From the NCBI GenBank assembly GCA_018435055.1, contig JAHDOA010000007.1:31853-95852 (forward strand): a stretch of 64,000 bases of DNA. The letters are read 5' to 3'. Each line of letters begins with the position of its first letter. Within the stretch, counting starts at the first letter, position 1. The position numbers and the translations under genes were made by a program. The notes beneath the pieces are model-generated. The model did not search any database. It saw nothing but the letters and a program-made list of their open reading frames with translations, and was not told where the DNA came from. Shown piece after piece: positions 1,776 to 57,368 of the stretch. The DNA comes from Pelotomaculum sp. (GTDB lineage Bacteria; Bacillota; Desulfotomaculia; Desulfotomaculales; Pelotomaculaceae).

Positions 1776-1850
1776 GGGCCGTGGTAGTACAGCTATTACT
1801 TCCACGTAGGGCTCTTTCATCCCCTGCCCTATGCCGGTTTATCCCGGCGT
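1776..1850 (-). mobile_element. 5' remnant of a group II intron RNA (domain I start), copy A
   Basis: minus strand ACGCCGGGATAAACCGGCATAGGGCAGGGGATGAAAGAGCCCTACGTGGAAGTAATAGC...CCACGGCCC resembles the GTGCGCCGGG...GAAGGAGTAGC...GGCCCC start of bacterial group II introns (recognised from memory); no RT ORF or domain V. Confidence 0.6.
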
Positions 1851-1855
1851 CTTTC

Positions 1856-1870
1856 GAACCGTCCCCATGA
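1856..1870 (-). repeat. REP-like left arm, copy 3 (right arm apparently displaced to 1692-1702)
   Basis: TCATGGGGACGGTTC; TCTCCTGTCGC at 1702-1692 is identical to the continuation in copy 2. Confidence 0.6.
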
Positions 1871-1996
1871 TCCCCCACACCCCAACCGGGTGTGTTTTTG
1901 TTTGATATTGGTTTTCCTAGTAGCAAAATTTTTATTTACATAAACAATTAAATGGGTATATAATTTACACAGCTAACTATAATGGAAGTGAAGTAA

Positions 1997-2437
1997 TTGA
2001 CTGATAATCTGATTTCTACTTTTGAAGAATTTGAACGGCTGTTAAAGTCAGTCTGGCAAAAATATCACCGGTATGTTGTGCCGGACATTTGCGGTCTTTC
2101 CCCTGTTCAGCTCTTCCTGCTGAAGTATGTACACGACAGAAAAGTCTGCAGACCTTCCGAAATCGCCATGGAGTTCGGGGTTACTCTCGGTGCGGTAACA
2201 GGTTTAATTGACCGTTTGCTCAAACTTGATCTCGTGTACAGAGAGCGCACCGAAGAGGACCGCAGGCTGGTATTAATCAGGTTAACTACCAGGGGAATGG
2301 ATACTGTTAAAGATTTTGACTTGCAACGCCGGCAAAAATTCACGGAGATTGCTCAAAACCTTGATGATGAAGACCTGGCCCGGCTGCTGCCGCTGATGAA
2401 AAAAATGTGCCTGTCCCTTAATAATTTAAAACACTGA
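1997..2437 (+). CDS. MarR family transcriptional regulator
   Basis: LSPVQLFLL...VTGLIDRLLKLDLVYRERTEEDRRLVLIRLT winged-helix signature. Confidence 0.92.
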   Translation: MTDNLISTFEEFERLLKSVWQKYHRYVVPDICGLSPVQLFLLKYVHDRKVCRPSEIAMEFGVTLGAVTGLIDRLLKLDLVYRERTEEDRRLVLIRLTTRGMDTVKDFDLQRRQKFTEIAQNLDDEDLARLLPLMKKMCLSLNNLKH

Positions 2438-2453
2438 AAAAAGGAGCAGCAAA

Positions 2454-4139
2454 ATGGGTATTCTACAGAGAACTGTCGGCTTAACCATTAATACTGTCGC
2501 CGGATCTTTTTTTAGAAATTTTGTTGCGGACACCCGCCGTGCCTCTGATGTTGAAGAATTAGTATTAATGAATATACTGGCGGACAACAAGAACACTGAC
2601 TTTGGCCTGCGTCACGGATTTGCCGGTATTACCTCCAAGAAAGAGTATAAAGATGCGGCGCCTCTGTCCACATACGATAATTACCGAAAAGATATTGAAA
2701 AATTAGCAGCCGGAGAAACCAATATCCTTACCTCGGAACCGGTAAAATATTTTGGCCTCACGTCAGGAACCACAGGGACCCAAAAAATGATCCCTGTCAC
2801 ACCCCGCTCTCACCGCATAGTAGCGGAACATATGGGTTTGTTAATGCAAGGAGTTTTATTTAATATTATCCCTGATTCCCGCCGTTTTGACCGGGGCTTG
2901 ATGCTTATCAACACGGTCACCTCAGGTTTAACACCGGCAGGCATCCCCACCGGCGCCGGCACCTCCGGCGGAATGCAGTCCATGAAGCGGCTGTTCCCGT
3001 ACCTGTGGACCTCACCTGCTGAAATATTTGAAATTAAAAGCCAGCCAGACGCCAACTACCTGCACCTGCTTTTCGCATTGAAGCATAAAAACCTGATGTA
3101 TATTGGAGCGCCCTTTGCCTCCGCTGTTCTGGAGCTGTTTAAGCAGCTGGAAAAATGTTGGCCCAGGCTGGTCGACGATCTGTCCAGAGGAAGCATAAAC
3201 GAAGAAATTCACCTGGATTTACCTGCAAGACACCGTTTGCAAAAAACCCTCCGCCCGGACCGTGCCAGGGCAGATGAATTAAAAAAGGAATTTGAGCGGG
3301 GTTTTGCCGGCATCGCCCGGCGGATCTGGCCCCGCCTCCTTTATATTAACAGTGTCGCCGGAGGCAGCTTTAGTATCTACGCCAAGAAATTAGAGCAATA
3401 TTTAGCGGGTATACCAATTTACTCTGCGGTCTACGGAGCGACAGAGGTCTTTATCGGCATCAGCCTGGAACCAGGTGAAACAACCTATGTTTTAACACCA
3501 AGAACCGCTTATCATGAATTTATTCCACTTAAATTTGCAGATGAAATCAATCCGCAAACGCTCGATCTTGAAGATTTGACTGTCGGGGAATGCTATGAAG
3601 TGGCTGTAACCAATTTTGCCGGTCTTTATCGCTACCGCCTTGGGGATATTGTTAAGGTCGCCGGCTACTACAACGAGTGCCCGGTAATCGAGTTTCTGTA
3701 CCGGAAGGGGCAACTTTTAAACCTCACAGGTGAAAAAACTTCTGAACAGGCTGTTTGCCACGCAGTCTTTCAGGCAGCGGCACGGACGGGTGTTGAGCTG
3801 GTTGATTACACGACGGTGGCTGACTGTGAGAATTCCCCGGGCCGGTATATCTTTTACGTAGAAGTAAAACTACCGGCGGGCGGCGGCAAAAACCTGCGCG
3901 GCACAGACGTGATTGAAGAAGCCCTCTGCCATGCCAATCCACGCTACCAGGCAGGCCGGCAGGCGGGGAAGATCGGACTGCCCGCAGTTAAGGTCGTCAA
4001 ACCCGGGACTTTTGGGGAATTAGTGAAGATACTCATAAAAAATGGCACATCAGCTAATCAATTAAAGATACCGCGGGTAGTAAGCGCTAAGAAACTGGTC
4101 GACTTTTTAGACCGCAACTGCATTTCACCAGGGAGATGA
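2454..4139 (+). CDS. GH3 family acyl acid-amido synthetase-like protein
   Basis: GH3 motifs: LTSGTTGTQKMIP P-loop, YGATE, LYRYRLGDIVKVAGYYNECP...RKGQLLNLTGEK. Confidence 0.9.
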   Translation: MGILQRTVGLTINTVAGSFFRNFVADTRRASDVEELVLMNILADNKNTDFGLRHGFAGITSKKEYKDAAPLSTYDNYRKDIEKLAAGETNILTSEPVKYFGLTSGTTGTQKMIPVTPRSHRIVAEHMGLLMQGVLFNIIPDSRRFDRGLMLINTVTSGLTPAGIPTGAGTSGGMQSMKRLFPYLWTSPAEIFEIKSQPDANYLHLLFALKHKNLMYIGAPFASAVLELFKQLEKCWPRLVDDLSRGSINEEIHLDLPARHRLQKTLRPDRARADELKKEFERGFAGIARRIWPRLLYINSVAGGSFSIYAKKLEQYLAGIPIYSAVYGATEVFIGISLEPGETTYVLTPRTAYHEFIPLKFADEINPQTLDLEDLTVGECYEVAVTNFAGLYRYRLGDIVKVAGYYNECPVIEFLYRKGQLLNLTGEKTSEQAVCHAVFQAAARTGVELVDYTTVADCENSPGRYIFYVEVKLPAGGGKNLRGTDVIEEALCHANPRYQAGRQAGKIGLPAVKVVKPGTFGELVKILIKNGTSANQLKIPRVVSAKKLVDFLDRNCISPGR

Positions 4140-5314
4140 GCTATATGAAAAATCACAGCAGAGAGACTATAATATTATTTTTTAGTTTATTTTTAGTAAT
4201 GGTCGGCTTTGGCATTATCATTCCGATCCTTCCTTTTTTTGTTACGCGCCTTAACGGCAACGCAACAGCGCTGGGATTTTTAATGGCTTCTTATTCCCTG
4301 ATGCAATTTTTCTTTGCTCCATTCTGGGGAAGACTCTCTGATCGAATAGGCCGCCGTCCTGTTCTCCTCATCGGTTTAAGCGGCTATGGCATAACCTTTA
4401 TTCTTTTCGGCCTTTCAACCCAGTTATGGATGCTCTTTTCGGCCAGAATTTTATCCGGTATAATCTCTTCGGCCACCCTGCCGACGGCCATGGCTTATAT
4501 CTCTGATATAACAGCCAGCAAGGACAGGGCCGGGGGGATGGGAACAATGGGAGCGGCCATGGGCCTGGGTATGATCTTCGGACCTGCCCTGGGAGGATGG
4601 CTTGGCCACTACAGCTTCTCACTGCCGTTTTTCGTCGCCGGGGGCCTTGCCATACTCACCCTTCCATTTGCCTGGTTCTTCCTGACGGAATCTTTAAAGG
4701 AACCGGGTGTAAGTACCCAGGAAGGCCGGCGGCTGTCCCTCGAAATATCTAAAAATCCCCAGTTCCCTCTTTTTTTCGTCGCTTTTGTGGTCAGCTTTTC
4801 CATGGCCATGTTTGAGAGTACCTTTGCCCTATTTGCTGCGGCGAGGGTCGGTTTCGGCCCCAGGGAAATGGGACTTCTTTTTACCGTTATAGGTGTTCTG
4901 AGCGTAATCATTCAAGCAGGTATGATCGGCAGGCTTGTCAACAGGTTCGGCGATGCAATGGTGATTACTGCAGGTATCGTTATTTCTGTAATCGGTTTCC
5001 TCCTTCTCATGGTTGCTCCCAATGCTGCTTTTATAATCGTTTACGCCGGAATATTCACCGCGGGAAACAGCCTGCTGCGGCCCAGTATTTCCACACTGGT
5101 CACCAAGACGGCACGTGAAGAAGAGCAAGGTTCCGCGGTGGGAATAATGCAGTCCTTTGACAGTCTGGGACGTATCCTGGGCCCGGTAACCGGCGGCATT
5201 GTCTTTGATTTTAACATCAACTTCCCTTACCTGCTCGGGATAATGGTATTAATTGCAGTTTTACTCTTTTTCAAACGCCACCAGGCCAATTTTTCGATGG
5301 AATCACGTGCATGA
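4136..5314 (+). CDS. MFS drug:H+ antiporter (TetA/Bmr-like)
   Basis: 12 hydrophobic segments, motif A GRLSDRIGRRPVL; ATGA overlap with the GH3 stop. Confidence 0.92.
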   Translation: MSYMKNHSRETIILFFSLFLVMVGFGIIIPILPFFVTRLNGNATALGFLMASYSLMQFFFAPFWGRLSDRIGRRPVLLIGLSGYGITFILFGLSTQLWMLFSARILSGIISSATLPTAMAYISDITASKDRAGGMGTMGAAMGLGMIFGPALGGWLGHYSFSLPFFVAGGLAILTLPFAWFFLTESLKEPGVSTQEGRRLSLEISKNPQFPLFFVAFVVSFSMAMFESTFALFAAARVGFGPREMGLLFTVIGVLSVIIQAGMIGRLVNRFGDAMVITAGIVISVIGFLLLMVAPNAAFIIVYAGIFTAGNSLLRPSISTLVTKTAREEEQGSAVGIMQSFDSLGRILGPVTGGIVFDFNINFPYLLGIMVLIAVLLFFKRHQANFSMESRA

Positions 5315-5399
5315 ATCTGGGCCGTGGTGGCGCGGCTACTCCTTCCACGTAGGGTTCTCTCATCCCCTGCCCTTGCCATATGCCGGTTTATCCCGGTAC
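5305..5399 (-). mobile_element. 5' remnant of a group II intron RNA, copy B
   Basis: minus strand GTACCGGGATAAACCGGCA...GGGGATGAGAGAACCCTACGTGGAAGGAGTAGCCGCGCCACCACGGCCCAGATTCATGCACG; direct repeat of 1776-1850. Confidence 0.6.
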
Positions 5400-5412
5400 A
5401 GTAGAACGGCTC

Positions 5413-5429
5413 AACCGTCCCCGTGACAC
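5413..5429 (-). repeat. REP-like left arm, copy 4
   Basis: GTGTCACGGGGACGGTT next to intron remnant B. Confidence 0.65.
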
Positions 5430-5443
5430 CGCTTGTTATAGTT

Positions 5444-8271: not shown

Positions 8272-10389
8272 GTGAAACTTCATTCAATGGATGCGGTAAA
8301 CAGTTTTACTAACCCGAAATCTCTGGCTGTTATCGGCGCCTCCAACACACCAGGGAAAATTGGCGCCGCTATTGTAAACAACCTGCTGAAAAGCGGTTAC
8401 AAAGGAAAAATCTACCCGATCAACCCGAAAGAAAAAGAAATATCAGGAATCCGGTGTTATGCCACTGTGGCCGATGTGCCGGGGGACATTGAAATGGCCA
8501 TCTTCAGCATTCCCGCCCGTAAAACCCTGGAAACGGCGGAAGAGTGCGGTAAAAAAGGCGTTAAAAACCTGGTTGTTATTACAGCCGGGTTCAAAGAAAT
8601 TGGCCGCGCCGGCGCCGGGCTGGAAAAGGAATTAATGTCGGTCTGCAGTCAATATGGCATGCGCGTGCTTGGTCCAAACGTAGTCGGATTTATTGATACC
8701 CATACTCCCATTAACGCTACTTTTTTAAAAGGATTCCCCCCAAAAGGAGAAATAGCCTTTATTTCGCAGAGCGGCGCCATCCTGGCCTCTATTCTGGATT
8801 GGAGCCAATCGGCAGGCATTGGCTACAGTAAAATTTACAGCCTGGGCAATAAAGCGGACCTGAGCGAGGTTGACTTTATCGCGGAAGCTGCTGCCGATCC
8901 AAACACAAAAGTTATCCTCTGCTATATTGAAGACGTGTCGCACGGACCCGAATTTTTAAAAGTGGTAGGCGAAGCGACTCGCAAAAAACCGGTGATAATT
9001 CTGAAATCAGGCACCAGCCAGTCCGGCGCCCTGGCCGCCTCGTCCCATACGGGGGCCCTGGCGGGAAGTGACCTTGCTTACAAAACAGCCTTCCAAAGAT
9101 GCGGTGTCCTGCGGGTATCCAGCATGTCCGAGCTTTTTGACCTGGCCATATCTTTTGTCAACCAGCCGGCGCCGAAAGGAGACAGGGTGGCCATTATCAC
9201 CAACTCCGGCGGACCGGGCATTATAGCCACCGACAAGGTTGAGGCACACGCCCTGCAGATGGCCCGATTTTCCAGGGAAACTATTGAAGAACTGCGCTCA
9301 TACCTGCCTGCCGAAGCCGGCATATACAACCCGGTGGACGTCCTGGGCGACGCCAAAGCAGACCGCTTCAGGTTTGCTTTTGAAAAAGTTTTCAAGGATG
9401 AAAATGTGGACAGTGTAGTACTGCTGCTGTGTCCCGTGGCGGTAACCGAACCACTTGAAACAGCGCAGGCCCTGGTTGAGTTTAACCGGCTCCACCCGGA
9501 AAAGACAGTCATGGCCGCCTACATGGGCGGCAAATCTCTGGCCGATGGGGCGGCGCTCCTTTCCAGCAGCGGCATCCCCTGTTTTCCCATGCCGGAAACT
9601 GCTGTCGCGGCTGTCGCGGGGATGACCGCTTACAGGAGGATGAGGGATCGCGCGGTAACGGAAGTGAGAAATGCAGACATAAAACCGGACTTAAAAACCG
9701 TTAAGGCAAATTTCTATGATGTCAAAAGAGATAACCGCCTGGCCCTGCTGGGTAGCGAAGCTGCAGAGGTTATCGCAGCTTACGGCATAGCGGCGGCCCC
9801 CACTATACTATCACAAAACCCTGATGAGGCTGCGGCAACAGCTGATCTATTGGGATACCCGGTTGTGCTGAAAATCGCCTCGCCGAAAATTATGCACAAA
9901 ACTGACGTAGGCGGGGTTATTAGCGGACTCCAGTCACCTGAGGAAGTCAAACACGCTTATGTAAATATTATTGAAAATGTCCACCGTTATTTACCCAGGG
10001 TCGTGCCTTATGGTATTGAGGTGCAAAAAATGGTACCGCAAGGAATAGAGCTGATCCTGGGCATGACCAGGGACGTCCAATTCGGCCCCTTGATAGGTTT
10101 CGGCCTGGGCGGAATATATGTTAACCTGATTAAGGACGTTTCCTTCAAGCTGGCCCAGGGCTTGACCAGTGATGAAATAGCCGATATGATAACAGAAACC
10201 AAAGCTTATTCCCTGATGAAAGGCTACCGGGGCAGCAGCCCGGTCGATATCCAGGCAGTGAGCGAAGCGGTTAAGCGCTTGTCTGTATTAGTCACTGATT
10301 TTCCGGAAATAACTGAGATTGATATCAATCCTCTCTTTGCTTATGGAAACAGCATAGCAGCCATCGATGTAAAAATAACCCTGTCTTGA
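8272..10389 (+). CDS. ADP-forming acetate/acyl-CoA ligase (fused alpha-beta)
   Basis: CoA-binding N-terminus (AVIGAS), phospho-His motif SHTGALAG, NPVDVLGDA, ATP-grasp C-terminus (HKTDVGGV, EIDINP); no GNAT domain. Confidence 0.9.
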   Translation: MKLHSMDAVNSFTNPKSLAVIGASNTPGKIGAAIVNNLLKSGYKGKIYPINPKEKEISGIRCYATVADVPGDIEMAIFSIPARKTLETAEECGKKGVKNLVVITAGFKEIGRAGAGLEKELMSVCSQYGMRVLGPNVVGFIDTHTPINATFLKGFPPKGEIAFISQSGAILASILDWSQSAGIGYSKIYSLGNKADLSEVDFIAEAAADPNTKVILCYIEDVSHGPEFLKVVGEATRKKPVIILKSGTSQSGALAASSHTGALAGSDLAYKTAFQRCGVLRVSSMSELFDLAISFVNQPAPKGDRVAIITNSGGPGIIATDKVEAHALQMARFSRETIEELRSYLPAEAGIYNPVDVLGDAKADRFRFAFEKVFKDENVDSVVLLLCPVAVTEPLETAQALVEFNRLHPEKTVMAAYMGGKSLADGAALLSSSGIPCFPMPETAVAAVAGMTAYRRMRDRAVTEVRNADIKPDLKTVKANFYDVKRDNRLALLGSEAAEVIAAYGIAAAPTILSQNPDEAAATADLLGYPVVLKIASPKIMHKTDVGGVISGLQSPEEVKHAYVNIIENVHRYLPRVVPYGIEVQKMVPQGIELILGMTRDVQFGPLIGFGLGGIYVNLIKDVSFKLAQGLTSDEIADMITETKAYSLMKGYRGSSPVDIQAVSEAVKRLSVLVTDFPEITEIDINPLFAYGNSIAAIDVKITLS

Positions 10390-26888: not shown

Positions 26889-26914
26889 CAGTTTTAATAG
26901 AATATAGCCGCACT

Positions 26915-27086
26915 TAAAATAGTGAACAGGTCGCATTTAATAGCGTTAAAAGGGAAGTCCGGTATGATCCGGCGCGGTCCCGCCACTGTAAGGGGATGAA
27001 CTCTAAAATGTCACTGGTCAGGCTCAGCTGCCGGCCGGGAAGACAGAGCCGTCAAATGACCCTCAGCCAGGAGACCTGCCTGTTCT
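26915..27086 (+). promoter_or_regulatory. cobalamin riboswitch 1
   Basis: AAAGGGAAGTCCGG...CCGGCGCGGTCCCGCCACTGTAA...CACTGG...GGGAAG...AGCCAGGAGACCTGCC (B12 box); terminator-like hairpin at 27166-27197. Confidence 0.93.
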
Positions 27087-27254
27087 TTAATCACTAAAAT
27101 ACCTACGGTTGATAGGTAGTGATTGTTCAGGTCAAAGTTGTTATTACGAAAAACCTGGATGAACTGCCCCGTCCCCGTGTTTTAGGTCGGGGTTTTTGAT
27201 TTATATAAGGCTATGTGCGCATAAATTTTTGTGAGATGAGGATGGTGTTAGGGT

Positions 27255-31436: not shown

Positions 31437-31480
31437 AAGTTGTAGCAAATATTTGACAATTGAGTGATTACTGTTTTACA

Positions 31481-31672
31481 AACCGCTCAATTCTAATAGT
31501 TAGAAGCGGGGGAACCAATCTTTACCGGGGTGAATCAATTCAGTAGTTAGTAGTTAGTAGTCAGTAGTCGAACACCATCTGACAACAGACTACCCACAAC
31601 CGACTACCGAATCGTAGGGCTATTCTTTCAGCCCGAATCCGTCAGCTAACCTCGTCAGCGTTGAAAGGGAAG
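31481..31672 (+). promoter_or_regulatory. c-di-AMP (ydaO/yuaA) riboswitch
   Basis: CCGCTCAAT...GCGGGGGAACCA...GGGGTGAATC...GTAGGGCTA...CCCGAATCCGTCAGCTAACCTCGTCAGCG consensus blocks. Confidence 0.92.
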
Positions 31673-31738
31673 CAGTTTAATTTATATATGCCGCATAATT
31701 CTGCCATGCGCTCATGCATTATATTGCGCGTTCCTTTT

Positions 31739-32665: not shown

Positions 32666-32742
32666 CTGGCCTTTTTTATCCCAACCAATATTTTTTATAT
32701 GGACAAATCTACTGGTTGATGTTAGGATGTTCTTAATTAAAA

Positions 32743-32916
32743 AATACTGTCCAGGTACTCCGGAGATGGAGTGTGAAAAGGGAACCGGGTGCGAATCCCG
32801 GACGGTCAGGCCACTGTATGTGGGGAGCGGCTCCCTTGATGCCACTGGGTTAACGGTTAGCCCGGGAAGGCGGGAGTATGGCTGAGATCCACAAGTCAGG
32901 AGACCTGCCTGGTCAG
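32743..32916 (+). promoter_or_regulatory. cobalamin riboswitch 2 (no credible downstream CDS)
   Basis: AGGT...AAAAGGGAACCGGGTGCGAATCCCGGACGGTCAGGCCACTGTA...GCCACTGGG...CCCGGGAAGGC...AAGTCAGGAGACCTGCC. Confidence 0.92.
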
Positions 32917-33053
32917 TTGGTACCGCCTTCCGTGTAAAGGCCGGGCTGTTTTTTGTTTTTCACAGTGTTTTAGCTTTGGGAAACCCGGATTTCTCAGCGA
33001 AGGAGCCGGGTTTTCCATTTGTCTCCTTCTTCCAAAATCATTTTATTTTATTT

Positions 33054-37004: not shown

Positions 37005-37099
37005 TTGTTATTATAATAGCCATATTATATTGTGTCAAGTCATGTTAATTATTTTTTGGGTTAGTTTTTGTTTAGTCATGCTATGTTAAATAATGCGGC

Positions 37100-37456
37100 T
37101 CAAATTCTTTTTTTGTAACACACCAAATTTTCTCCGGCCAGTTTATCCTCCCAGAGCATTTGAAGTATTTCCAGCTCCGCACTGTAGTCAGTTTTTGATT
37201 CGTCCCGGTCATATTCCAGGTTTTCCAGGATTTCTATGTCGAAATTTTCGGGGCCAAATTCTTTCCATTCTTTTTGCAGTTCCTGGTTTGGATGGAGGCC
37301 GCCTTCCAGCCTGACTTTGGCGCCGTTGATCACGCCTCTTAAATCCTGGGTCGCTTTTAAAAAAAACTTGCTGTTGACCCTGGAGCGGACAATAAATATG
37401 CCCATCTGCGGCTTCATCTGCTTGTACTGCATTTTTAATTCCTTTTTTCTGTCCAT
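37100..37456 (-). CDS. GIY-YIG nuclease-like protein (small firmicute family)
   Basis: MDRKKELK..YKQ..PQMGIFIVRS...HPNQELQKEWKEFGPENF. Confidence 0.75.
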   Translation of the reverse strand: MDRKKELKMQYKQMKPQMGIFIVRSRVNSKFFLKATQDLRGVINGAKVRLEGGLHPNQELQKEWKEFGPENFDIEILENLEYDRDESKTDYSAELEILQMLWEDKLAGENLVCYKKRI

Positions 37457-37539
37457 CTAAAAAGTTGTCCTTTCCCAATTTTTGATGATCCCGGTATCGT
37501 CCAGGAAGACCGGGATGTTGATCTTTTTCTTCCTTCTGC

Positions 37540-38025
37540 TTATTTGCAATAACCCATCTCCCTCAATATCCTTGCTAAAGTAAAAAGCCGTTCTCCCAGG
37601 ATTTCGTCGTCGTTGCTCAGCGCCTGACTGAATAAGCTGATATCCTCATCGATCTTTTCATTATCAGTACATACTGCCACCGTCATGGCGTCGCCCTGTA
37701 AACCGACCCGGTCAATAACGGGTTTCCCGGTGTCATATAATTTCTCATACTGGTAAGCTTCCCGAAAATGCAGTTTTGCGCGGCAGACTAAAATGGCCAG
37801 ATCCAGTACACGGTGCAACGGCATTTCTTCTGACTGCCTGGACCACTTCTCACCTGTGTACCGCCATACTTTGGCTGATATATCCACCTTGCCCCGGTCA
37901 TTCCACTGGGCCAGGCCCAGTGAAAGACCCTTGGCGTCTGAGTTATAGGCGTGCCTGCCGTCAACATTTTCGTAATTCTCGCATACAATGACCGGTTTGT
38001 GCCTTAAATTAGCCGGTATTTTCAT
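37540..38025 (-). CDS. DUF6530-type conserved hypothetical protein
   Basis: MKIP..L.HKPVIV.ENYENVDGR..YNSDAKGLSLGLAQWNDRGKVDISAKVWR. Confidence 0.7.
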   Translation of the reverse strand: MKIPANLRHKPVIVCENYENVDGRHAYNSDAKGLSLGLAQWNDRGKVDISAKVWRYTGEKWSRQSEEMPLHRVLDLAILVCRAKLHFREAYQYEKLYDTGKPVIDRVGLQGDAMTVAVCTDNEKIDEDISLFSQALSNDDEILGERLFTLARILREMGYCK

Positions 38026-38043
38026 TTCCCTGCCCCCACTAAA

Positions 38044-38104
38044 CTACTAATTTACTAAGCTACTAGACTACTAAAATTATAGTCGCCCTCCCGTACACTG
38101 TCAA
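38044..38104 (-). promoter_or_regulatory. consensus SigA promoter with a 4 x 8-bp direct-repeat operator
   Basis: TTGACA (38104-38099)-N17-TATAAT (38081-38076); YTACTAR repeats at 38044, 38052, 38060 and 38068. Confidence 0.75.
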
Positions 38105-43220: not shown

Positions 43221-44075
43221 TCAGCAGCCACGACCGCCTGACACGTCCGGCATCTCCAGAATGTCGGCCGCATTTTCCAGCCAGTCCCCTTCATAAAGCT
43301 CAACCAGCCCTCTGTCGCAGGCTGTCGCAAGCCTTGGCTCGATAGGCAGCCTGGCCAGCACGTCGATTTTAGACTGCCGCGCGATTTCCTCAATGTGGCT
43401 GTTACCGAATATTTGATGTTCTTTCCCGCAGTCAGGACATTTGAAATACGCCATGTTTTCAACTATACCGGTAATCGGTATATCCATCATTTTGGCCATT
43501 TTTACCGCCTTGGACACTATCATTGAAACCAGTTCCTGGGGAGATGTCACAATTATTATCCCGTCAACAGGTATCGATTGAAACACGGTAAGAGCCACGT
43601 CCCCCGTTCCAGGCGGCATATCAATAAACATGTAATCCACGTCGCCCCAGATCACATCTGTCCAGAACTGCTTTACTGTGTTCCCGATAATGGGGCCCCT
43701 CCAGACAACCGGGTCCGTTTCATCCGGCAGCAGCAGGTTTATCGACATGATTTCGACGCCAGTTTTGCTCTTTGTCGGCAGCAGGCCGAAATCATTCCCC
43801 GTTGCTTTCTCCCTGATACCAAAGGCCTTGGGTATGGACGGCCCGGTAACGTCCGCATCCAGGATGGCCGTATTGTAGCCCCTCCTTTTCATCGTTACGG
43901 CAAGCAATGACGTTACCAGCGATTTGCCGACTCCTCCCTTGCCGCTGACAATGCCGATGACTTTCTTCATATTGCTCATTTCGTGGGGCCTGGCGAAAAG
44001 ATCTTGCGGTGTCTCCTTTCTTTCAGCGCAGTCTTCACCGCAGGCGCTGCATTTTTGGTCACAGTCTTTGCTCAT
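43221..44075 (-). CDS. Mrp/NBP35 Fe-S cluster carrier ATPase
   Basis: SGKGGVGKS, DADVTGPS, DMPPGTGD, CPDC; Cys-rich N-terminus. Confidence 0.93.
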   Translation of the reverse strand: MSKDCDQKCSACGEDCAERKETPQDLFARPHEMSNMKKVIGIVSGKGGVGKSLVTSLLAVTMKRRGYNTAILDADVTGPSIPKAFGIREKATGNDFGLLPTKSKTGVEIMSINLLLPDETDPVVWRGPIIGNTVKQFWTDVIWGDVDYMFIDMPPGTGDVALTVFQSIPVDGIIIVTSPQELVSMIVSKAVKMAKMMDIPITGIVENMAYFKCPDCGKEHQIFGNSHIEEIARQSKIDVLARLPIEPRLATACDRGLVELYEGDWLENAADILEMPDVSGGRGC

Positions 44076-44112
44076 ATCCTCTCTCCTTTATGATTATATG
44101 TCATTTGGATTT

Positions 44113-44472
44113 TTAGATCAGCTTTTGCCCGGCCCTGTGCCTGAAACACCTGCCGCACCCGTGTAACTGTTCGCTGCCGTCGCAAAGCTTATAATCCCCA
44201 CCCTCAATCTTCAGCATATTTCCCCTGACCAGGAATGCCGCGATTTTCCTGCGGGCTTCATTATAGCTCCTCTGAACGGTGGTGCGGGCAACATTCATTC
44301 TTTCCGCGCACTCTTCCTGCGTCATCGCTTCTAAATCTATGAGGCGGATGGTTTCAAATTCATCTATAGTCATGATGATCTTTTCCCCAGTCGGGCGATG
44401 CGCGTTAAGCGGCCCGAACAAGCTGTTTTCCGGCAGGTTGCATACCTTTCTCCGTTTTCTCGGCCGGGGCAT
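44113..44472 (-). CDS. DUF134 family HTH protein
   Basis: [12 protein letters not shown]....FGP...[27 protein letters not shown]...IEGGDY. Confidence 0.9.
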
Positions 44473-44501
44473 GATTTATTCACCTCAAGTATGTAATGTA
44501 A

Positions 44502-44527
44502 GTAACAGGGGATTGTCCCCCTGTCAC
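44502..44527. repeat. REP-related hairpin
   Basis: minus strand GTGACAGGGGGACAATCCCCTGTTAC; shares the GGGGAC core. Confidence 0.5.
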
Positions 44528-44546
44528 TTATGTTATTATGTTTCCC

Positions 44547-44661
44547 TTATAAATTTTCCAACTGTTTGCTGATGATGTCAAGCCTGTCTTGGAGAAGTTA
44601 CTTTTGTTCTTCCAGCAGACGGCTCATATCCTATCGGGCCAGTGCCGTCTCCCCCTGGCAT
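44547..44661 (-). pseudogene. DUF5320-type gene remnant
   Basis: RBS then MPGGDGTGPIG; in a shifted frame LLEEQK*LLQDRLDIISKQLENL*; Gly-rich middle deleted. Confidence 0.7.
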
Positions 44662-44791
44662 GTTCGTTACCCCCCTTCATGGTTATTGACATATGTCCTT
44701 TATAATTCTATTATACGTCCATATGAACGTAGGTCAATAACTAATACTGTGCCCTCGACTATTTTTTATTACTTTAAACGCATCATTACTG

Positions 44792-57314: not shown

Positions 57315-57368
57315 AGGGTGTCAAGGGCAGGGTGTCAAGGGTGTCAAGGGGACGGGGTTGTTGACACC
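57315..57368 (+). repeat. REP-like hairpin with triplicated left arm
   Basis: GGGTGTCAA at 57316, 57330 and 57339, then GGGGACGGGGTTG-TTGACACC. Confidence 0.8.

Follow-up and report, generated by a model that had tools for sequence, protein, structure and literature searches.

The window analysed here is a 64-kb stretch of DNA from Pelotomaculum sp. (contig JAHDOA010000007.1), to which all coordinates refer unless another locus is named. Three open reading frames (ORFs) lie on one strand at positions 1997-5314 and encode, in order, a MarR-family regulator, a GH3 acyl-acid amido synthetase and an MFS transporter (Table 1). An earlier note on this DNA had described a tight MarR-GH3-MFS trio; the ORF listing places the three genes exactly there, and the Pfam assignments agree for all of them. 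The regulator and GH3 genes are separated by 16 nucleotides (nt), and the GH3 and MFS genes either overlap by 4 nt or lie 5 nt apart, depending on whether the MFS gene starts at 4136 or at 4145. We conclude that this cassette is a real and conserved module that has been missed or mislabelled by annotation.

Table 1. Features of the cassette and of the remainder of the 64-kb window.
Feature	Position	Strand	Details
MarR-family winged-helix regulator	1997-2437	+	146 amino acids (aa), TTG start; Pfam MarR E = 1.5e-12
GH3 acyl-acid amido synthetase	2454-4139	+	561 aa; Pfam GH3 N, M and C domains, fold, motifs
DHA1-type 12-helix MFS transporter	4145-5314	+	389 aa; Pfam MFS_1 E = 5e-63
Conserved promoter and leader	1893-1996	+	-35 TTTACA at 1935-1940, -10 TATAAT at 1959-1964
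Candidate 19-bp pseudo-palindromic operator	1961-1979	+	overlaps -10 box and start; read by eye
Upstream copy of dispersed repeat of about 100 nt	1776-1875	+	85-93% identical to 5319-5430
Downstream copy of the repeat	5319-5430	+	begins 5 nt after the MFS stop
Terminator-like G+C-rich hairpin and T run	1876-1894	+	between repeat and promoter; consensus match only
CCGTCCCCNTGAYMC sites	566-580, 1129-1143, 1859-1873, 5415-5429, 57341-57355	-, +, +, +, -	
Cobalamin riboswitches (two)	26911-27097, 32736-32926		Rfam
Cyclic di-AMP (c-di-AMP) riboswitch	31474-31674		Rfam

The MFS reading frame spans 4136-5314, and use of the in-frame start at 4136 would yield a protein of 392 aa. The ATG at 4145 is better supported, because the N-terminus that it gives is conserved among related loci, here designated by L numbers (MKNHSRE in the window, MKNHGKE in L001 and MKNHNRE in L002), because a Shine-Dalgarno sequence, AGGGAG at 4130-4135, is placed 9 nt 5' of it, and because public gene calls use the 389-aa product. 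The ATGA that the earlier note had taken as evidence of translational coupling between GH3 and MFS is thus physically present (ATG 4136-4138, TGA 4137-4139), and the supported start in the window lies downstream of it. An ATGA in which the homologous MFS start and the GH3 stop overlap is indeed used in L001, L002, L007 and L010, so stop-start coupling characterises the family despite the 5-nt gap in the window. The start of the MarR gene is likewise supported by comparison, since three different start codons occupy the same site, namely TTG in the window, GTG in other strains and ATG in L001.

GH3 proteins are the textbook hormone-conjugating enzymes of plants. The window protein matches the Pfam N-terminal, central and C-terminal GH3 domains with E-values of 7e-81, 6e-25 and 2e-23, far above the gathering scores, and all three domains are full length (profile positions 3-304 of 304, 1-75 of 75 and 5-117 of 119). 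It also aligns over its full length with solved plant structures, with E-values of 2.4e-74 for AtGH3.6, 2.4e-70 for PBS3 and 1e-59 for JAR1. An AlphaFold2 model (pLDDT 84.5, pTM 0.76) adopts the two-lobed, ANL-like GH3 fold: Foldseek matched it to AtGH3.5, AtGH3.6, OsGH3-8 and PBS3 at TM-scores of 0.82-0.84 and about 30% identity, whereas PaaK-type acyl-CoA ligases, the next tier, reached a TM-score of about 0.45.

The adenylation motifs, which the earlier note had called intact, are indeed so. The three nucleotide-binding motifs defined for the family (S/T-S-G-T-S/T...K, Y-G-S/A-S/T-E and G-L-Y-R-Y-R-x-G-D; PMC12493201) are all present, as TSGTTGTQK at residues 103-111, YGATE at 327-331 and GLYRYRLGD at 390-398, the last being identical to motif III of JAR1 as printed in that paper. 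In 25 homologues of 41-83% identity, no variation occurs at S104, G105, T106, T107, G108, K111, Y327, E331, G390, Y392, R393, Y394 or D398. The acyl pocket was compared with that of AtGH3.6, for which the lining residues have been described (PMC9894192). In a HMMER alignment, Y134, L175, Y178, Y179 and F184 of AtGH3.6 correspond to G128, T170, G173, M174 and a gap, in a loop region where the alignment is less certain, and T193, Y195, V231, I312, M337 and A339 correspond to L184, W185, P220, V301, V326 and G328. Because the pocket differs from that of the auxin-type enzymes, a substrate class is not transferable from plant GH3s, and an attempt to predict the substrate from the pocket residues gave no usable answer.

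A second candidate identity, that of the lyso-ornithine lipid synthetase OlsH of Singulisphaera acidiphila, was rejected. Against the NCBIfam OlsH model (NF052613), whose cut-off is 620 bits, the window GH3 reaches 107, with its best stretch at residues 290-548 in the C-terminal half, and scanning of ORFs with Pfam found no OlsI-type alpha/beta-hydrolase O-acyltransferase in the cassette or its immediate flanks. Judged by its sequence and modelled fold, the window protein is a bona fide member of the GH3 family, neither auxin-type nor OlsH, and an amide-forming activity is predicted for it.

The best solved relative of the MFS protein is NorA of Staphylococcus aureus, matched at 172 bits over residues 9-387, which is the full length. 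Motif A (GRLSDRIGRR) and the antiporter motif C (GMIFGPALGG) can be read off the sequence, and NorA E222 is kept as E227 in the alignment. A nearly identical public protein, OQA11033.1, carries the name 'Tetracycline resistance protein, class C', and the Sporotomaculum homologue is named 'class B'. We rejected this label: the Tet(A/B/C) model gives 229 bits against an NCBIfam cut-off of 475, and the two names are therefore over-annotation, the score being under half of what the family demands. An NCBIfam profile search returned no LplT-type family match for the protein, and its similarity to the bacillibactin exporter BcbE is weak. On motifs and alignments, the MFS protein is classed as an exporter-type, DHA1/NorA-like pump and not a Tet pump.

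The regulator matches the Pfam families MarR and MarR_2, has a winged helix-turn-helix domain and falls within the family norm of about 140-150 aa. It lies under every NCBIfam equivalog cut-off, and its solved relatives are generic MarR proteins with E-values of 3e-11 and weaker. Upstream of it, a promoter scan found a sigma-70-like promoter, TTTACA-18-TATAAT, with 11 of 12 consensus matches, and the region 1893-1996 aligns with L001, L002 and L003 at a mean column identity of 84%. The pseudo-palindrome overlapping the -10 box, a candidate MarR operator, is perfect in L001 and matches at 16 of 19 positions in L002 and at 10 of 19 in the window.

Co-transcription of the three genes, as implied by the earlier note, is suggested by contigs assembled from RNA libraries that may contain DNA; the contigs are of low depth and carry no strand information. 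Two of these contigs (2313-2498 and 2355-2576) cross the MarR/GH3 junction and one (4038-4365) crosses the GH3/MFS junction. Within the transcription unit, the contigs reaching furthest 5' begin at 1974, 1976 and 1988, just 3' of the -10 box; no RNA contig covers 1931-1973, and one contig from X25 lies on the upstream repeat at 1778-1930. This pattern fits a single transcript starting near 1972. The sequence is present in wastewater, anaerobic-digester and landfill metagenomes, and the nearest named records are Firmicutes bacterium ADurb.Bin373 (99% MFS identity) and an uncultured Pelotomaculum metagenome-assembled genome (83% GH3 identity).

We then compared 97 loci, gathered by a single-protein scan of a genome collection, which gave one match, by exact-protein look-ups and by searching metagenomes with an alignment of GH3 sequences; their neighbourhoods were read by ORF calling and phmmer. 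The neighbourhood proved to be conserved, as the earlier note had supposed: the GH3-MFS pair recurs in 13 modules, comprising the window and 11 further distinct loci of Desulfotomaculia-type Bacillota with GH3 identities of 36-83%. These are L001, L002/3, L005, L008/9, L016, L021 and L049, which holds two modules, together with L006 (Desulfolucanica intricata), L007 (Sporotomaculum syntrophicum), L010/11 (Desulfosporosinus acidiphilus) and L097 (Desulfallas thermosapovorans). The two genes are always on the same strand and overlap or lie no more than 35 nt apart, and the MFS directly 3' of GH3 scores 288-712 bits against the window pump. In L015 and L019 a MarR gene precedes GH3, and the sequence ends before the position of the pump. 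In a neighbour-joining tree of GH3, which excludes L097 (found later), all modules except the two of L049 fall within one clade. Pairwise identities of GH3 and MFS are closely correlated over 12 modules (r = 0.96), and none of 5000 permutations in a Mantel test reached as high a value.

In every case the regulator is a small winged-helix protein of a ligand-responsive kind: MarR in seven loci and PadR for six modules in five loci. MarR is found in the Pelotomaculum and Desulfosporosinus subclades and PadR in the Desulfolucanica/Sporotomaculum/Desulfallas subclade and in L049, an exchange that we read as non-orthologous replacement preserving the logic of regulator, enzyme and pump. When the immediate neighbours of 79 distinct GH3 genes (137 in all) were tallied by family, MFS came first (12), followed by MarR (6), a second GH3 (5) and ABC exporters (5). 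The ABC exporters belong to GH3-GH3-ABC-ABC operons in L046, L047, L048, L051 and L053, in which the genes overlap or abut (for example at 2217-9123 of L047) and two tandem GH3 paralogues, from a separate GH3 clade (about 35% identity), accompany a heterodimeric ABC exporter. In these operons GH3 has been paired, independently, with another exporter superfamily. As a separate observation, positions 318-7487 of L049, a bioreactor contig, hold tandem modules arranged as PadR-GH3-MFS and then GH3-MFS-PadR, with GH3s 36% identical to that of the window. In L071 (1024-8404), an epimerase, an alpha/beta-hydrolase, an enolase-superfamily enzyme, a GH3 of 30% identity, a 476-aa MFS and a radical-SAM protein stand in a row; this may be a small biosynthetic cluster, and its alpha/beta-hydrolase recalls the pairing of OlsH with OlsI.

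The cassette also behaves as a unit with respect to its surroundings. By blastn, the homology that L001 and L002 share with the window is limited to a segment beginning at 1893 or 1908 and ending at 5295 or 5300, that is, to the promoter and the three genes, and the flanks of L002 match positions 37096-38082 and 43559-44745 of the window instead. The block therefore occupies different places in related genomes. We also observed that the L002 flanks (8946-10266 and 1-1443 of that locus) are 84-91% identical to these two stretches, which in the window lie 32-40 kb from the cassette and in the opposite order, indicating a rearrangement between the two genomes.

Several characterised systems share parts of this arrangement. 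With the plant enzymes AtGH3.5, AtGH3.6, OsGH3-8, PBS3 and JAR1, the window GH3 has in common its three-domain architecture, nucleotide-binding motifs and fold, and by homology the same chemistry would be expected, in which an acid is adenylated and then transferred to an amino acid. Unlike them, it is bacterial and operonic with a regulator and a pump, has other pocket residues and stands in no hormone context. Bacterial GH3 proteins, which the earlier note had described as little characterised, now include OlsH (2025), the only characterised one in the literature that we searched, so that statement requires an update. OlsH makes an N-acyl amino acid, N-acyl ornithine, with ATP, and the authors of that work suggest that other bacterial GH3s, whose functions await study, also synthesise N-acyl amino acids (PMC12493201). 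Both are bacterial members of the GH3 family; the partner of the window GH3 is an efflux pump and not the lipid acyltransferase OlsI.

The closest functional analogue, likened by its arrangement, is the iaaL-matE pair, in which the gene of an acid-amino-acid ligase likewise stands beside a multidrug-type efflux gene. In Pseudomonas savastanoi and P. syringae the two genes are adjacent, their expression is coordinated and they have a role in the handling of indole-3-acetic acid (IAA), although MatE was concluded to move IAA rather than IAA-Lys (PMC7074806). The pump of that pair is of the MATE and not the MFS type, and its setting is plant pathogenesis rather than anaerobic digestion. DHA1 pumps of the NorA/Bmr/Blt type under MarR or PadR repressors resemble the window in their 12-helix MFS, their motifs A and C and an upstream winged-helix regulator; the window cassette differs in inserting a GH3 between regulator and pump and in not keeping NorA D307. 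Within the literature searched, no paper mentions the GH3 product by its public name alongside MFS or MarR terms.

An operon logic in which an amide would be made and then exported is well supported. As a specific explanation, and the best supported one, we follow the general logic of the earlier note and propose that the cassette is an inducible conjugate-and-export unit, composed of a ligand-released repressor, an acid-amino-acid ligase and an exporter of the product; we give this a probability of about 0.45, somewhat short of even odds. MarR would repress the promoter at 1935-1964 through an operator overlapping the -10 box and the transcription start, and a small-molecule ligand would release it and permit expression. 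GH3 would then adenylate a carboxylic acid with ATP and pass the acyl group to an amino acid, and the NorA-like antiporter would use proton exchange to expel the amide, perhaps together with unconjugated acid. Prior conjugation would stop the back-diffusion of a membrane-permeant weak acid. In digesters, where aromatic and long-chain fatty acids abound, this could matter, and the purpose would be detoxification. We suggest, tentatively, a wider formulation in which the cassette would be a self-contained, relocatable bacterial counterpart of the 'phase II / phase III' metabolism of eukaryotes: a ligand-sensing repressor would control the ATP-dependent joining of a carboxylic acid, toxic or xenobiotic, to an amino acid, and a proton antiporter would then export the conjugate. 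The acids concerned may be aromatic acids, long-chain fatty acids or the carboxylate drugs and herbicides of wastewater, and the sister GH3 clade would have arrived at this logic a second time, with ABC exporters.

A number of observations weigh against the conjugate-and-export unit. In the enzyme, the aromatic residues of the auxin-type (group II) pocket of AtGH3.6 are replaced by glycine or other small residues, and the similarity to OlsH, itself a maker of an N-acyl amino acid, is weak. In the pump, S312 stands where D307, essential in NorA, would be. The candidate operator is palindromic at 10 of 19 positions in the window itself, and the low-depth RNA contigs may include carry-over of DNA. 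Each conjugate would cost the conversion of ATP to AMP and one amino acid per molecule, which is expensive for a syntrophic anaerobe. Within the GH3 clade, L004 and L014 (and only these) encode a stand-alone GH3 with no pump, and MFS relatives of 56-57% identity occur with no GH3 nearby in Desulfitobacterium (L095) and Heliobacillus mobilis (L096). The pump therefore need not be dedicated to a conjugate, and the stand-alone forms of both proteins show that each can work alone.

These stand-alone forms speak for an arrangement of two parallel defences under one regulator, in which the MFS would pump out the free toxin and GH3 would inactivate the remainder, with no obligatory hand-over of a conjugate. 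The stand-alone MFS relatives are as similar to the window pump as the GH3-linked ones, and NorA-like pumps are polyspecific, which fits such a division of labour. The co-divergence of the two proteins (r = 0.96) and the conserved stop-start overlap argue instead for a fixed stoichiometric partnership, and the independent pairing of another GH3 clade with ABC exporters points the same way; we consider parallel defences improbable. An opposite direction of transport, in which the MFS would import an acid, an amine or a lyso-lipid for GH3 to trap or re-acylate, is suggested by analogy with LplT-Aas of Gram-negative bacteria, where an MFS and an adenylate-forming enzyme are likewise paired. The architecture of enzyme and transporter is the same, and the direction of transport is not readable from sequence. 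The window MFS nevertheless belongs to the DHA1/NorA group with antiporter motif C, has no LplT-type family match and is accompanied by regulators of the efflux and stress kind, and we regard import and capture as very improbable.

The remaining alternative is biosynthesis and secretion. Here GH3 would couple an amino acid to an endogenous acid of the fatty, aryl or hydroxy type, and the resulting N-acyl amino acid, secreted through an MFS dedicated to it, would serve as a signal, a surfactant or a simple metal chelator. The activity of OlsH and the extension of N-acyl amino acid synthesis to other bacterial GH3s by its authors (PMC12493201) agree with this, as do the N-acyl amino acids that Clostridioides difficile secretes, for which a term search of the paper turned up no named enzyme (PMC13595955). 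The recurrence of exporter pairing with two transporter superfamilies and the weak similarity of the pump to BcbE can also be counted in its favour. Against it, no further biosynthetic genes travel with the cassette, and neither a Fur-type nor a quorum-type regulator is found in it. Local regulators of the MarR and PadR families are commoner in stress and efflux units than in metabolite production. Secretion of an endogenous product thus appears unlikely to us, if worth bearing in mind, both for the pathway and for the roles proposed for its product.

If the conjugate-and-export unit is correct, bacterial GH3s would gain a second role beyond membrane lipid, that of tagging carboxylic acids for export, and the module would be a gene candidate for those N-acyl and aryl-acyl amino acids released by anaerobic Firmicutes for which an enzyme is not known. 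The host is a Pelotomaculum-like syntroph abundant in digester, wastewater and landfill metagenomes. Since this host is exposed to pollutants of the carboxylate type and to aromatic and fatty acids that are inhibitory, the module could have a bearing on how robust digesters are and on which transformation products arise from acidic micropollutants. Testing the hypothesis would be inexpensive, requiring one soluble enzyme, one repressor and one pump.

The two repeat copies are direct, bracket the cassette and are the only ones in the window, and a 45-nt core of the repeat (1805-1849) is found with other flanks, at up to about tenfold local depth, in related metagenome contigs. The repeat is absent from L001, L002 and the other loci gathered early in the comparison and matches no Rfam family, and no attachment site of the transfer RNA or transfer-messenger RNA type was found at its copies. 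This structured flanking element could mark insertion of the cassette by recombination. A group II intron in the downstream repeat was considered on the strength of an Rfam match at 5300-5360 (E = 2.7e-5), obtained only with the region cut at 5300; with a wider region the match is gone, and it is therefore an artefact of truncation. A circular or tandem form of the cassette was likewise rejected. Cassette-sized contigs of 3543 nt occur in each of X8 and X9, a joint from 5339 to 1814 is seen in X4 and X9, and contigs of 3543 or 3553 nt recur in Logan samples, but a shared 34-nt unitig would collapse the assembly graph in those strains and accounts for them, so the looping contigs are not evidence of excision. 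Among 72,556 plasmids, no GH3 homologue was found at E <= 1e-20, and a composition test gave no sign of foreign origin, the GC content of the cassette (47-50%) being like that of the rest of the window.

Elsewhere in the window, the motif CCGTCCCCNTGAYMC occurs five times against an expectation of 0.05. It terminates both of the repeats that flank the cassette, and its copies at 566-586 and 1123-1143, 95% complementary to each other, make up an inverted repeat that encloses a 100-aa ORF (642-944) in a stretch of low GC content (36-40% against about 50%). This inverted-repeat pair resembles the termini of a small mobile element. The three riboswitches listed in Table 1, all above their Rfam gathering scores, are unrelated to the cassette.

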